Below, piece after piece: positions 5,831 to 57,949 of a stretch of 64,000 nt of DNA; within the stretch, counting starts at the first letter, position 1; each line of letters begins with the position of its first letter. A program made the position numbers and the translations under genes. Under the pieces are notes generated by a model, which saw nothing but the letters and a program-made list of their open reading frames with translations, searched no databases and was not told the origin of the DNA. Source of the DNA: Catajapyx aquilonaris (Eukaryota). The stretch spans positions 62,001 to 126,000 of the forward strand of contig KZ538092.1 of NCBI GenBank assembly GCA_000934665.2, read 5' to 3'.

Positions 5831-8669
5831 ATGGCGACTCAGTCGATTCCAGTTTCGGAGGTGATACGTCGTAAGGACGAGTTCCAGGATGAGCCAAAGA
5901 AGAAGACCAGGGAGGACTGGAGGAAGGCCAAAGAGCTCGAGGAGGCCAGGAAGGTAAAAATGCTAAAACAAAAATTCATAACGGAACATATAATTATTGA
6001 AAAGAAAGAAAAAATGTGTAGCCTATTTGCATTATAAAGAGATTAATTCACCAAATTACACCAACAGGCCGGAACAGCCCCAGCGGCTGTGGATGAGGAA
6101 GGGAGGGACATCAACCCGCACATTCCGCAGTACATCTCAACAGCCCCGTGGTACTTCGGCTCCGAGGGGCCTACTTTGAAGCATCAGAGGCCGCAGCCGG
6201 AGAAGCAGCAGGAATTCTCACGCCTTGATGAGTGGTACAAACGAGGAGTCGACTCGGTATGGACACAACCTGTAATACATTACGTGGCTATTATTACCAT
6301 TGTTTGCGTTTTCCAGAGCAAGTTGACTATCAAGTATCGGCCTGGAGCCTGCGAAAATTGTGGCGCAGTCACTCACAAGAAGAAGGACTGCATGGAACGC
6401 CCGAGGAAAGTGGGAGCCAAGTTCACAGGGGCGGACATCGCTCCTGATGAGTTTGTCCAGCCAATGCTGTCCATGGATTACGACGGAAAGAGGGATCGCT
6501 GGAATGGGTACGATCCAGTAGAGCACAGGGCCATTGTTGACCAATATAACCAGATAGAGGAGGCCAAGAGGCAGCTCAAAGCCAACAGGCTGAAGAAAGG
6601 TGGGGAAGGAGATAATGGCGAAGATGAGGTGAGTTACTTTCAACTGCAGTATTATTTATTTTGCCATCTTATGCGGATATGCGCTTAATTTTGCAATGCT
6701 GTATCGCTGCAATCGCTCACATGTAAACACGGCGTCATAGCTGTTTTATAAAGGAAGGGATTGCCCGTGTATAATTTTGCACAGCATAAGCATATCAAAA
6801 TGAAAGGAAAAAATAACGTGTAACCTACATCGGAAAGGAGAGTGAGCATCACCTCATAATATTATATGGGGTGGGCCACTCTCAGCTGTTTCTCACGAGA
6901 CGGCTGGCCCCCTTTCCCAGAGTAAACTGTGAAGGGTCTCTGGGTCTGAGTGTTTCTAAGTGCGCTTAGCCCTCGTTCCCTAATCGCACATTTTTAGGTA
7001 TGATACAATGCGGATGACTGAAAAACAGTCATTCCATTTTTAATTCAGGAAATGGCTGTGGCTTGACCACTACTGATTTATGTGTGGTTTCTTTCTAATC
7101 GATCACATGAGAGTCATGTCTTATTAACTGAGCCCTTGTTGCAGGAAGGAGGTGAGGAAGGCGAAGAGGAAGATGAAGACAAGTATGTGGAAGAGGCTGA
7201 CATGCCGGGAACCAAGGTGGACAGCAAGCAGCGTATCACTGTGCGTAATCTCCGCATCAGAGAGGACACTGCCAAGTATCTCCGCAACTTGGACCCCAAT
7301 TCGGCATACTATGATCCTAAAACTCGATCGATGAGAGACAATCCTTACAAAGACCTCCCCGGTGGTGGTAGAGGAGGAGATGGAACCGGAGGAGGGGAAG
7401 AAGAGGTGGCCTATGCGGGAGAGAACTTTGTGCGATTCACTGGCGACACCGTGTCGCACTCAAAGGCACAGATATTTGCATGGGAGGCGTACGATAAAGG
7501 TGTGGATGTCAATTTGCAAGCTGAGCCCACCAAATTGGAGATGCTGCGGAAGGAATTTGAGAAGAAGAAGGACGACTTCAAAGGTAGCCTCCAGCAGAGT
7601 GTGTTGGAAAAGTACGGTGGGGCTGAACATCTCGATGCTCCACCCAAGCAGTTGCTTCTTGCTCAGACGGAAGATTACGTCGAGTATTCTCGTCATGGAA
7701 AAGTCGTTAAGGTAAGATAATACCTTGCACATGCGGACATAAACTGACTGTTAGTACAGTTTGAGTAAGAGTGTTTATGGGAATTTTTCAGGGCCAAGAG
7801 AAGCAAATAGTGAGCTCCCGTTACGAGGAAGACATTATGATCAACAACCACGCTTGCGTGTGGGGCTCCTACTGGAGAGCAGGGAGGTGGGGCTTTAAAT
7901 GTTGCCATTCCTTTGTCAAGAACTCCTACTGTACAGGAGAAGCAGGAAAGTCAGTGGCTGCCGTTCCACTGTTGCCTATTATGCCAGGACCTTCTACGTC
8001 CATCCAAGGTGAACAGGAACAGGCTGAAGAGGGAGAAGTGGAAGAGGAGGAAGAAGAAGAGGAGCCAAAAACTTTGGTTGAGGTGTGTTGTGGTTCTTAA
8101 TTCTTCTAGTATCTAGTGTCATAACCTGTTTTAACACTTTCGTTGACGTACATTAGATACATCGAGAGAAACAGGAGAAGGAAGCAACTGAGAAGAACCT
8201 GAAAAACCGCAAGAAGAAGGAGAAGCGACGCAGGCTGCGGGGAAAGAAGAAGGTTGCTCATGAGTCGGATTCTAGCAGCAGTAGCAGCGACTCAGAAGAT
8301 GAAGACGTCAAGAAAAGGAAGAAGCTCAAGGAGGTGAGCTTTCATTCGTATGCATACTGGTACATGCAAAGACAAGGCTTTTGCAGTTATTTATTTGCAT
8401 ATTTTCATACAACACAGTCTAGTGCCACGTACTTGTGGCCATTTGTACATGAGCAAATTAGCTCAATAGTTTAAATGCCACTTTCTTATTTGCAGGCCCT
8501 ACTTCGGGAAGAGTTCTTACAGGCTCAGGCAGAGAAGGACCTGGCAATTGATGACAGGAAGCGGGCGTACAATAGCCGTTACGAGGTGAAGGCACCTACG
8601 GAAGAGGAGATGGAGGCCTATTACATGAAGAGGGCCAGAGCGGAGGACCCCATGGCAGACTTTCTGTGA
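5831..8669 (+). CDS. SLU7: Pre-mRNA splicing factor SLU7 (~610 aa)
   Basis: Exons 5831-5953, 6068-6256, 6317-6628, 7145-7711, 7792-8082, 8157-8333, 8496-8669, all GT-AG, 1833 nt in frame. Motifs [10 protein letters not shown], zinc knuckle [40 protein letters not shown]. Confidence 0.97.
6990..7040 (+). mobile_element. Possible 3' end of a Helitron/Helentron-derived (HINE-like) insertion in SLU7 intron 3
   Basis: Stem-loop GGATGACTG-AAAAA-CAGTCATTCC followed by a T-run; this intron (516 nt) is much longer than its neighbours. Confidence 0.35.
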
Positions 8670-9094: not shown

Positions 9095-11615
<2,521 letters not shown>

Positions 11616-26975: not shown

Positions 26976-29900
26976 CACACATCGAGCTAGTCGGCCAGTT
27001 TATATTTCTTTTTGTTTATATTTCACTCACTCTCACCCCATCCCCTGGAGTGATCTCCCTCTCTTCCTGTTTAAAATCCTCTTGCCATAAAAAAATATAT
27101 ATATATTCGCAAAGCTTATTCGGATTATTTTTTACTGTTGCTAAGACCGGCTTGGTCGCAGTACGGCTAATTACACACTCGATTGTGAATAAGCCTCACT
27201 TGTGACCAGCCCGAGAATCATGATCATTTGCCAATGTTGTAAGCAGACTCTTCCTTCATTTCACAGTGCCTGCGGGTACCAAAAAAAAAGCTTTGGGTTA
27301 TGTAAATACAGATGCGGATTTTTTCATTTAGTTGCTCTGGATTTTTTTTATCCGAATCATTTGTGTTGCCGAACAGGAGGGAGGGAGTGGGAGGTGGGGG
27401 GAAGGCGTATGGTAATGAGAGAGAGAGAATAAAGGGTTGTGTGGGTATTTGGGTTGGGGGGTTGAAGTGGTTTAACACGAGGGTGTGAATGTGTGTGTAT
27501 GTGCCAGCTGACTCAAAAATAGTCTAAATGAAAGCCAGAAAAGGAAAAAAAACTTCTTTTTGTTTGGAATTGTGTGTGATTTTACATTTAAAAAAACAAC
27601 CTTTGATTCCCCCCTCTCCCTCCCCAACTTTAGATTTGTTTACCTTTGAAGCCTTCCATGCTGCAGTTTTTTAAACAGATTTTATTTGCCTCGTTGCGCT
27701 GTGATGTTTGGCCTCTCCCCACCCTCCCCCACACTATTTTGACCCCGAGCGCTAGTTATTTTTCACTAGTACAAGTTAGTCGATCGATTTAGCTTGGACC
27801 TTGAAGTGAAGTGTACATTTGAAATAATGGAAGAAGACTGAAAATAATAACAAGACGACAGCCGCTCCCAACCTTTGACCCCGGAATACTTTTCTTATTT
27901 TCTTCTTTTCATGACTTGTGTAATGTATGCCCTCTTTTTTTCCCCTGTGTTCGCATACAAGCGTGAGTGTATGTGCGAGTGCATGAATATAAGTGTGCTG
28001 AGCTGAAATTTTTGCAAACTTTTTTTCCCTCCTTTCCGTTTCTCCCCAACCGCCCACCTTGGTTTTGTTTTTTTTCCTTCTTAAATTCTCTTCCCTGGGG
28101 GCGTAATTATTTTGGGCGGAGTGCAAAGTACAGAAGCCAAGTGCTCAGAATATTTCAGGGAAATAAAAAATGGCGTGGAATGCAAGATATACGATGGGGG
28201 TGAATTTTTTTTTTTTTTGCCAAGGCAGGAAAAAAAAGGGCTTTGAATGCAGTCTGTTAGTGGATTTATCAGTGCTAATTAATTATTAAATGGTGAATAA
28301 ATGATGAGCTAACAAAACAAGTGTACATATTATACATACGTCAGGATAACGTTGGATATATTTAAAAAAACACATTTTTTCCTCCCCTGCCCGCCCCGAG
28401 ACAAAATGAACGGAAAATAAAAATAGTAACGGTTATGTATGTGGGAATATGTGCGTGCGTCTGTGTTTTTTCTTTTGCGATCTTAAAAAGTGTGTAGCCA
28501 AAATAGGTGTCTCCCGCCCCATCCGAAGTTTTTTTGTTGTTTTCCTCTCTATACCCGGCCCCCCGCCCCCTCTCCTCCCTCCCATTTATATAATATATTA
28601 AGATATATAAAGAAAAAAGAAAAGAAAAAAGTTCTTGGTTATGTTGACTGTGAACGAGACTGATCTATTCCATGTTGACATCACATGAACTAAATGTGAA
28701 TTTGAGATTTTGTGTTTTTTGGACTTTTGCAGGTGGGGAAGAGAATAGAATGATGATGAAAAAATAATAATACGAGAAATTTTTGCTCCAGAAATAATCC
28801 ACTTCATGACCATTAGCTTTGTTGGATTTGTGTTTTTTTTTTTGGTTCCCTGTCGTTGGGCTTGTTTTGTTTTTAACGAACTGAAGAAGTGTGCCACTTG
28901 TGTACTACACACGTATGAACCGCCTGTGATGTGCATGGATTTTGGGGCTCCAGTCGACTGAAAGTGAGAAAAAGTGCGAGTGGCGTCGGTACTTTCCGGT
29001 TCAGCCCAAAGCCTTCAGTTTTTTAATTATTAATGTTGTTATTATTATTTCTCACTCTCCATGTTTTTTTTTTGTTGCAATTTGATGAGCAGTGGGCGAT
29101 TTACAGTTGAGAATGAAGATCAAACGACGAAGTGGCAATTTGCACTTTTTAATTATAATTTTCTTCTCAATTATTACATGGCATGGAGGTGGACACACAC
29201 ACACACAACATAGTGAGTTTTGCAAAAGTGGGCAAATAAATGTTGGGCCCATTTTTGGAAATTGTTTTCAAATAAAAAGAAGAATTTAAAAAAAACAAAC
29301 AAAAAAGTGGACTGCTGCTGGCGAAAAATAAAGTCATCCTATAATGAAATGTGGTCCTCCGAAATGTATTGATTTTTAGAGAGTGACTCCCACGCATTTC
29401 CCCCAAATCGATAAGGCAACACTGGTTGAAGCCAAATTGTGGGCGCCGCCATCTTGAAGTTCTGGTTGGTCACGTGATGCTGATCCGACGTCGTGATTGG
29501 CCGGAGCTGCAATATGGCCGACCACATGTGACCAGCTGGGGCCATTTAAATTTTTTTTAAAAAACGTGGTAATGTTAATTAAATAATCGGCACATGTTTT
29601 TTTGCTAATTAATTGTTCAGTACTGTTGTGTCCAGATGGGAATTATGCTGCGGGGGGATTGAAGCGTGGAAAAAGCCACACATGCTGAGCTAACTGCACA
29701 TTTTTTTTGGCCTGAAGAGGACAAGTCTGGGCACTTGTGATGTCAAAGTAAGGGTCAAAGGTTAAGGTCGATTCGGTTGAGCCCCATTTTCCACCCGAGG
29801 AGTGACACAAGCAGCTGGAGGACACTGCCAGGGAGAGGTGACAATCCAGTGGTAATTATCACAAGGCCTTTATATTAACATGGGTGTTATGCAATTTATG

Positions 29901-30100
29901 GTAGCAGATGTTGAATAATTGAATAGTAATTAAGTTATCTAATGAGGAAGAACTGGTTAATGCTGCAGTGGAATAATTGTACGTACTGCAAACCGTTACA
30001 AGCGCAGTCGCAATAGCAGCAATAAACCTTTGATTTTCTCTGCCTGAGTCGTACCGTACATTAATTATGTTTCAGGTTGATACGCAATCGAGTAACCAAA

Positions 30101-31842
30101 ATGGAGAAGGTGAACCTGAATGAGCCGCGGTGGGACCAGAGCACGTACTGGGGTCGTGCGAAGCACTTCTTCACCACCACCAACCCTTTGAATCTGATGT
30201 GCAGTTCGGAGGAGCTGAACAGGGCCAAAGAGTTGGTGTCGAAGCATCGGAAGGGTGAATATGCGTCCCTCGGCGGAATCACTGTGGATGAGCTGTGGAG
30301 GGCCAAGCAGGTGTACGACTCTGCCTTCCATCCCGACACCGGGGAGAAGATGATCCTCATCGGACGCATGTCGGCCCAGGTCCCCATGAACATGACTATC
30401 ACCGGATGCATGATGACCTTTTACAAGTTAGCACTTACACTTTTGCGTACGCCTGACACTGGTTTATTGAAACTGGGAATTTTGCAGGACTACGCCAGCT
30501 GTCGTTTTCTGGCAGTGGATCAACCAGTCCTTCAACGCAATTGTCAACTACACCAATCGCAGCGGCGACTCGCCGTTGAGCGTACAGCAGCTGGGAACTT
30601 CATACGTGCTGGCCACCGGAGGAGCACTAGTCACGGCACTAGGGCTCAACTCCCTAGTCAAAGTGAGAAACACGAGCGTCGTCATATTACTAGTATTAAT
30701 TTGATCACGCGACCATAATTTCAGACAGCACCAGCCTTAATTGGTCGACTGGTCCCGTTTGCGGCAGTGGCTGCGGCCAACTGCGTCAACATTCCTATGA
30801 TGAGGCTGAAGTGAGTTCCTTCCAGTACTAAAAGTGCACCCTACTCACAGCATTTTTGTTCGAGTTCAACATAGAAAACTGCACTGTAGCGTTGTTCGTG
30901 TACTAACCTAATCAGATGTGTACAGATAATACGCTACCCACAGAGAAATCCGCGAGGGGATTCCGGTCGTGGATGAGAACGGGAACAGGCTGGGCGAATC
31001 CAAAGTCGCAGCCCAGAAGGGAATCTCTGCCGTTGTGTTCAGTAGAATAGGAATGGCATCGCCTGGCATGGGTAGGTAGCTCTAACCTCACACTAACGCA
31101 ACGCTTACTATCCCTGGGGCTCAACTAGTCATTAACAAGATCGCAGGCATGAGCGTTTCACGAATTAACGACTTATCTGATGATGACAGCGCATTATTCC
31201 GCTGACTAGTTATATGGAAGTTGGCATTATTCGTGATGATTTCTATCGTATGTGGTGTCTGTTGTTAGAGAACTTCGGGAAGGAATTCCGCTATTTGACG
31301 AGGCGAGCACCCGTATCGGGGAGTCACAAGTGGCGGCCAGGTCGGGCATCTCGCAGGTTGTAATTTCCAGAATACTGATGGCCGTACCTTCAATGGGTAA
31401 GATTGGGACGCATGTGTGTGGTAGTTAGAAAAGGAAAGCAGGGCAATCCTCTTCCCCCAAGCATGTACTTATTTTATTGCTTGTAAAGTGATGGAAGCAC
31501 ATTACTTCCCGGGGCAACCGATTTCCAGTACTGCCGCCTATTTTGATGAACATGCTTGAAAAGCGAGGCGTGTTACGCCGCATGCCCTGGATCAATGCTC
31601 CGCTCCAAGTACTTCTCTGCGGGTTCTGCCTCACTTTCGCCACACCCATGTGCTGTGCCATATTCCCGCAGATGTCGTCTATCAACGTGTCCAGTTTGGA
31701 GCCGGAGTTGCAGGTACTTGACATTTACACAAATTTTTTGGTTTCACTTGTCTCACCCCGATTGTTTTCTCCTATTTTCCAGGAGAAGATTAACAAGCTT
31801 CCGAATCCACCCACGGTTGTGTACTACAACAAAGGGCTGTAA
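30101..31842 (+). CDS. Sfxn1-3: Sideroflexin (SFXN1/3-like mitochondrial carrier, ~319 aa) with two alternative internal exons
   Basis: Exons 30101-30426, 30488-30662, 30725-30810, [30944-31071 OR 31269-31396], 31529-31713, 31783-31842 (960 nt). [74 protein letters not shown] possible upstream micro-exon ATGTCAAA|GT at 29740 spliced to 30076 would add 11 aa. Confidence 0.95.
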
Positions 31843-32206
31843 TTCACTGGAATTGAATGTTATTTTTTCCCCCCCGATAATTGTCCCTACAACATGTGTA
31901 GGATGGTAGCAAGATGTGTAGATAAGTGAGAATGTAAAGTGCAGTCAGCTCAAAATTTTTTTTTTTGGATGCAAGTATCCAATGGCCATAAAAAGTTGAC
32001 TGAGAAAAACGATGACAATAATACATGGCGCTCGCTAAACAATAATTTGCACTTAATCATGAAACAAAACAAAAAAAAAAATCCCTGACTAAATCCTGCG
32101 AAATTAAATATTTCAGACGCTGATCACTCAGGTAGGCAACAACAAAATCGAGGGAATAACACTACTCAGCAGCACTGACTTTGCAAATGTCTTTTCTTTA
32201 AAAATC

Positions 32207-33363
<1,157 letters not shown>

Positions 33364-34328: not shown

Positions 34329-39670
<5,342 letters not shown>

Positions 39671-57731: not shown

Positions 57732-57949
57732 NNNNNNNNNNNNNNNNNNNNNNNNNNNNNNNNNNNNNNNNNNNNNNNNNNNNNNNNNNNNNNNNNNNNN
57801 NNNNNNNNNNNNNNNNNNNNNNNNNNNNNNNNNNNNNNNNNNNNNNNNNNNNNNNNNNNNNNNNNNNNNNNNNNNNNNNNNNNNNNNNNNNNNNNNNNNN
57901 NNNNNNNNNNNNNNNNNNNNNNNNNNNNNNNNNNNNNNNNNNNNNNNNN
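57732..57949. other. Assembly gap
   Basis: 218 N flanked by poly-C and poly-G runs. Confidence 1.

Follow-up and report, generated by a model that had tools for sequence, protein, structure and literature searches.

A probable pair of mutually exclusive, tandem-duplicated exons in a sideroflexin gene of Catajapyx aquilonaris

The sideroflexin locus and its two alternative exons

The window, by which we mean the whole stretch of 64,000 nucleotides of Catajapyx aquilonaris DNA analysed here, carries ordinary nuclear genes at 6047-7720 (+), 9814-10314 (-) and 34329-39578 (+) (a Slu7 splicing factor, a DEAD-box helicase and an SMC protein), and contains a run of 218 N at 57732-57949 plus eight single Ns. 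Close to its middle lies an intron-rich nuclear gene on the plus strand, the coding region of which was assembled as six exons joined across GT..AG borders (Table 1). All five exon translations tested match the Pfam family PF03820 above its cut-off of 22 bits, and they follow one another along the profile without rearrangement (positions 1-102, with an E value of 6.1e-46 for exon 1, then 104-161, 197-238 twice and 240-300). The translation also contains AFHPDTGEK, with the HPDT motif, and an Asn-rich segment, which are motifs of the sideroflexin or SLC56 family, named as such in PMC12180156. The predicted product is an SFXN1/3-type sideroflexin, a mitochondrial carrier.

Table 1. Features of the sideroflexin gene (positions in the window)
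Feature	Position	Strand	Basis
5' untranslated exon	29573..29850	+	X1 contig joint 29850>30075; 224-nt GT..AG intron
Exon 1, coding from ATG 30101; HPDT motif	30075..30426	+	Joint 30426>30488 (X1)
Exon 2, with 13-residue Asn-rich segment	30488..30662	+	Gene model, Pfam, X1 contigs
Exon 3, constitutive; ends in phase 2; donor GTGAGT, the consensus	30725..30810	+	Gene model, X1
Alternative exon A, 128 nt, the form present in RNA	30944..31071	+	X1 joints 30810>30944 and 31071>31529; PF03820 197-238
A-B intron, 197 nt, GT..AG	31072..31268	+	Sequence reading
Alternative exon B, 128 nt, intact	31269..31396	+	AG/GT sites, open frame, PF03820 197-238
Exon 5, constitutive acceptor for A or B	31529..31713	+	Gene model, Pfam, X1
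Last coding exon; stop 31840-31842; 3' UTR continues	31783..31842	+	Joint 31713>31783 (X1)
Coding pieces joined	30101-30426, 30488-30662, 30725-30810, A 30944-31071 or B 31269-31396, 31529-31713, 31783-31842	+	

The RNA-like data for this species come from Logan contigs of one public run, X1, whose kind is unrecorded; its contigs are spliced and therefore behave as RNA. The 5' limit of the untranslated exon is merely the end of such a contig, and the last joint in Table 1 was given by the X1 alignment as 31710>31780 with a cut of +3. In the same data, one contig that includes the final two sideroflexin exons continues directly through 31843-32400 into a minus-strand gene that is itself spliced (intron 32326-32391, read as CT..AC), so that the convergent 3' ends of both genes abut or overlap. 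The exons of this neighbour match the Pfam family Erv26 (PF04148).

The unusual part of the gene is its fourth exon, which occurs twice. Both direct reading and computation confirmed the central claim of the original prediction, namely two exons that agree in length (128 nt) and phase, are each bordered by AG and GT, and encode homologous peptides; the peptide sequences given there proved exact. Each of them opens with one base that closes the codon left open at the end of exon 3. The copies are identical at 77 of 128 nucleotides, and thus differ at 51, and at 27 of 42 amino acids; identical bases at codon positions 1, 2 and 3 number 26, 33 and 16 of 42, so third positions are near random and second positions are kept. 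Searched by tblastn against the whole 64-kb window, A finds B with an E value of 2.8e-14 and the next best place at 0.16, and there is no third copy of the exon in it. Both copies fit the same stretch of the family profile, A with 53.0 bits (E 3.2e-14) and B with 48.1 bits (E 1e-12).

It had also been claimed that including both exons, or neither, would shift the frame, and this holds as well: either exon alone leaves 319 open codons, the two resulting carriers differing at 15 of 319 residues, while A and B together run into a first stop at codon 270, inside B, and skipping both leads to a stop at codon 206. The marks of tandem-duplicated exons are found together at this locus, that is, adjacency, equal length, phase, homology, splice sites of their own and a frame that needs a single inclusion.

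In X1, a contig of 1048 letters joins the 5' untranslated exon with exons 1, 2, 3 and A and the first 30 letters of exon 5, confirming both junctions of an A-only transcript. No X1 contig covers exon B (bins 31180-31447), which says nothing either way because contigs drop rare variants. The contig with A stops 30 letters into exon 5 at the point where another one begins; this break looks like a branch of the assembly graph, and the overlap, starting from a single G, fits an unspliced path and a path through B equally. As a separate observation, the summed contig depth in the bin 31448-31581 amounts to 84.5, above what the listed contigs account for; one of the four aligned records falls entirely inside this bin.

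The pair and its exon types in other genomes

Outside the window, exon B gave 152 matches among protein representatives at E <= 0.001, none of them above 67% identity. A word-indexed search against longer proteins, in a collection without the protein of C. aquilonaris itself, matched four of seven candidates for exon A, with a best identity of 81%, and none of eight for exon B. Scanning metagenomes with an alignment of the segment yielded 126 confirmed loci, 80 of which were analysed, and judged by their flanks roughly 45 of these look genomic and roughly 35 transcript-like. Two tandem copies on the same strand are present in 5 of these 80 loci, where all ten exons are 128 nt long and have AG/GT sites, with an intervening intron of 68 to 249 nt. 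In 40 of the approximately 45 genomic-looking loci there is one copy only, even by sensitive profile search, which likewise revealed no additional or decayed copies in the 80 loci; the pair as a general feature of sideroflexins is therefore out. One of the loci, L051, where 74 nt separate the exon from exon 5, is clearly single-copy, and the transcript-like loci nearest to the pair (L004 and L029) are of the A type only.

Four of the metagenome loci (L001, L007, L008 and L023) show an intact pair in the order A then B, with the same type signatures as the window. The first copy in all of them has K at column 20, A or S at column 29 and a final S/A-P-G-M, whereas the second has S at column 25, Q at column 29 and a final V/I-P-S-M. 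Other duplications of this segment were also noted. At L045 (6000-6359) there is a tandem pair whose second copy carries SRD in place of the conserved SRI. Among the 152 protein matches, P0005 and P0037 each hold two homologous stretches within a single ORF. In P0037, from another, G+C-rich organism, the copies are separated by a short intron (about 67 nt) that is read as part of the ORF; in P0005 (106 aa) one copy follows the other immediately, with no such translated intron, and the second contains one additional residue close to its beginning as well as a Cys for the otherwise invariant final Met.

A profile made of five B exons led to named springtail proteins, which are also the closest to the constant parts of the C. 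aquilonaris gene (identities of 81% and 80% for Allacma, 82% for Orchesella, and 76% and 72.5% for Folsomia). In Folsomia candida, the 328-aa P0158 (sideroflexin-3 isoform X2, an NCBI database model) carries B alone between the flanking exons, and the 383-aa P0155 (Sideroflexin-3) carries A, 13 read-through residues and B; that is, P0155 is P0158 plus 55 residues made of the A-type exon and the read-through. Allacma fusca P0156 has a partial A plus B, and B-like segments are found in a protein of Orchesella dallaii and in a transcript-like Logan protein (P0159, 320 aa, from a 1672-nt contig). Lengths of 383 aa for P0155 and 364 aa for P0156, against some 320-328 aa, indicate that the merging of both exons is probably an annotation error caused by the pair. 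The Folsomia models thus share with C. aquilonaris the gene family, the exon, the A-then-B order and the type signatures, and one of them has the B-type exon alone; they differ in belonging to another species, with constant parts diverged as given above, and in being database models. A second, diverged Folsomia gene (P0183, Sideroflexin-1 [Folsomia candida], 55% identical in its N-terminal part) has a B-type segment ending in A-V-P-S-M and a long branch among the B exons, and may have originated from the B form as a gene copy.

The comparison with relatives also bears on how both copies have been kept. Between exon B of the window and those of four other genomes, pN is 0.25-0.34 and pS 0.74-0.89, the latter being saturated, and exon A differs from other A exons by a pN of 0.16-0.21. 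Saturated synonymous sites next to so low a pN indicate that exon B is under purifying selection; the pair is old, with both copies kept so in several genomes. Judged from these sequence comparisons, an unused exon could not have retained frame, splice sites and fit to the family over such a distance. The selection on both copies that had been proposed from the window sequence is in this way supported, and strengthened by the relatives, in which pN is far below pS and the pairs are intact. Nor is the second exon decayed or absent in them, the outcome originally named as contrary to the prediction, given that it is intact in four metagenome contigs and two named springtails.

The history of the pair is harder to read from so short a segment. 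In a tree of 45 segments, B of the window falls in a clade of B exons (support 96/97), and the two L045 copies, each the other's nearest kin, form a clade of their own (99/90), and thus stem from a separate duplication. Trees with more rows recover the A exons as a clade (93/75 and 88/90), in which A of the window joins the first copies of the relatives' pairs, with the B exons as an unresolved grade that includes vertebrate SFXN1 and SFXN3. An AU test does not reject A and B of the window as sisters (p = 0.34), a topology that would imply that this lineage had a duplication of its own. A single old duplication common to these genomes is nevertheless likely, as supported by the signatures and the shared order, on a question that 42 columns cannot settle. 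No B exon has a longer end branch than that of the window (0.31-0.53), which has therefore evolved faster. In the springtail-type pair, B resembles the general animal form, grouping with vertebrate SFXN1 and SFXN3, and A may be a derived type; if so, a new, lineage-specific module A became the main form of the carrier, and an ancestral-like B was kept for special use. Moreover, pairs occur beside the springtail type (the window, L001, L007, L008, L023, Folsomia and Allacma), namely at L045 (99/90 and 96/87) and in P0037, and we tentatively raise the possibility, doubtful as it is, that this hairpin-plus-helix exon of SFXN1/3-type genes is a recurrent hot spot of tandem duplication.

A view of the exchanged part of the protein was obtained from an AlphaFold2 model of Folsomia P0158 (pLDDT 82.9, pTM 0.75), in which the exon corresponds to residues 206-247; a sequence search returned no experimental structure of a sideroflexin. 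The model has a helix at 204-209, a beta-hairpin formed by strands 211-214 and 220-224, a helix at 225-242 and, at the end of the module, a kink that precedes the next helix. According to this prediction, the swapped module is a short helix, the beta-hairpin and the next helix with its invariant Ser-Arg, up to the P-G/S-M kink. Six points consistently tell the A and B types apart: the residue that ends strand one of the hairpin, the position where the helix begins, which is K in A, columns 25 and 29, which are S and Q in B, and the kink, with S/A-P-G-M in A versus V/I-P-S-M in B.

Splicing of the pair and alternative explanations

Altogether, we regard as probable that this SFXN1/3-type sideroflexin gene contains a tandem-duplicated, mutually exclusive exon pair. 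In the mechanism that we propose, B would replace A in some cells, stages or conditions of C. aquilonaris, giving a second carrier. Exclusivity would be imposed by the reading frame: since 128 is not a multiple of 3, transcripts with both exons and those with neither meet early stops and would yield no working carrier, and they are likely to be degraded. The swap might tune the transport properties of the carrier or its contacts with partners, with A as the presumed main form. The original prediction of one gene making two carrier variants, to be checked by the junctions of both exons, stands in its anatomy and, through one X1 run, in the splicing of exon A; the inclusion of B in C. aquilonaris we infer, and the difference in substrate or tissue specificity that it proposed for the variants is conjectural.

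Other devices for keeping two exons apart were also considered. Steric hindrance is unlikely in the window since its A-B intron (197 nt) is long enough for splicing; the corresponding intron has 249 nt in L001, 218 nt in L023, and 68 nt in L007 and L008. An incompatibility of U2 and U12 splice sites was likewise set aside: the U12-type donor consensus is GTATCC, and neither the donor of A (GTAGGT) nor that of B (GTAAGA) is of this type. Compared with GTRAGT, the donor of exon 3 agrees at 5-6 of 6 positions in each of the five genomes. The donors of A and B are weak in the four relatives, where 3-4 of 6 positions agree, and better in the window, with 5 of 6; this pattern fits regulated exons. 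Pairing between docking and selector RNA elements, as in Dscam, was not found in the introns by k-mer and duplex tests, both crude: no 7-9-mer word is conserved in at least four of the five genomes in any of the three introns, and the duplex energies between introns stay within about 2.7 SD of those of shuffled sequences, with none clearly better. Only short, weak inverted repeats are present in 30811-31528. In view of these negative results, the proposed choice between the exons is deduced from the reading frame alone.

The best surviving alternative is that exon B is a relic in this species, the pair being at work in relatives while the lineage of C. aquilonaris uses A only and B has started to decay. 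Its long end branch would agree with this, and so would its hairpin turn, which reads EAST in place of the Gly-Asn turn of the relatives. Yet B is intact in frame, acceptor (AG), donor (GTAAGA) and length (128 nt), its profile score comes near that of A, and it departs at none of the 22 columns invariant among the five B exons, being itself one of these five rows. Moreover, the low pN with saturated synonymous sites implies constraint during most of the time since the split, and we consider a relic unlikely. Less probable still is a role of B as a poison exon, whose inclusion along with A would shift the frame and reduce the level of the carrier. The stop of the double-inclusion transcript does lie within B, but a poison exon needs no family-conforming peptide in the frame without A, and B keeps one in at least seven genomes; besides, a B-only protein model is on record for Folsomia. 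As for an assembly artefact that placed two haplotypes or paralogues side by side, there is practically no chance of it, given the number of bases at which the copies differ, the separate intron sequences around each of them and the recurrence of the arrangement in independent assemblies.

Meaning and comparison with known systems

The mutually exclusive pair, favoured over these alternatives, appears to be undescribed in sideroflexins; it is an ordinary case of a classic device, and is implicit in the isoform models of NCBI for Folsomia. None of the papers returned by our literature search, judged largely by title, reports mutually exclusive exons or tandem exon duplication in a sideroflexin, Drosophila Sfxn1-3 and CG11739 included. 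The family is absent from the main texts of PMC5740500, PMC3303723 and PMC9741552, although supplementary tables of such surveys could list the fly gene, and the words exon and alternative splicing do not occur in the SLC56 review. For annotation, the lesson is that such a pair is easily mis-modelled, as in the two database proteins, P0155 and P0156, that merge both exons.

Sideroflexins of the SFXN1/3 type are mitochondrial serine carriers that feed one-carbon metabolism, according to PMC12180156. The conserved natural swap of a hairpin and a helix points to a part that selection has tuned repeatedly. The pair also offers two ready-made variants of one protein for a comparison of transport.

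A parallel is offered by vertebrates, where SFXN1 and SFXN3 are likewise two related SFXN1/3-type carriers in one animal, differing at the helix kink among other places (A-P-G-M in five named SFXN1 proteins and I-P-A-M in one SFXN3 protein so named). Mouse heart is reported to shift from SFXN1 to SFXN3 (bioRxiv 10.1101/2024.04.09.588716). The vertebrate case differs in being a gene duplication and not an exon swap. The A/B and SFXN1/SFXN3 pairs have residues in common at the kink and within the hairpin, and we asked of the trees whether an ancestral pair could have been split between the paralogues, A becoming SFXN1 and B becoming SFXN3. This correspondence is unsupported: the exon tree places both vertebrate types with B (86/91), and therefore A and B do not represent the SFXN1/SFXN3 split, on an alignment of 42 columns for which AU tests reject neither B with SFXN3 (p 0.42) nor SFXN1 with SFXN3 (p 0.38).

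Mutually exclusive exons derived from tandem duplication have been surveyed in human (PMC5740500) and in insects (PMC3303723). With these known systems the sideroflexin pair shares equal length and phase, homologous peptides, a frame that fits a single exon and selection on both copies. Unlike them, it shows A alone of the pair in the RNA of C. aquilonaris.

A further likeness is found among the carriers of the mitochondrial inner membrane themselves. The mitochondrial phosphate carrier SLC25A3 has alternative homologous exons, 3A and 3B, whose tissue-specific use is documented. It differs from the sideroflexin pair in this documented use and in belonging to an unrelated family, SLC25 and not SLC56, and resembles it as an inner-membrane carrier of mitochondria whose isoforms arise from two alternative homologous exons.
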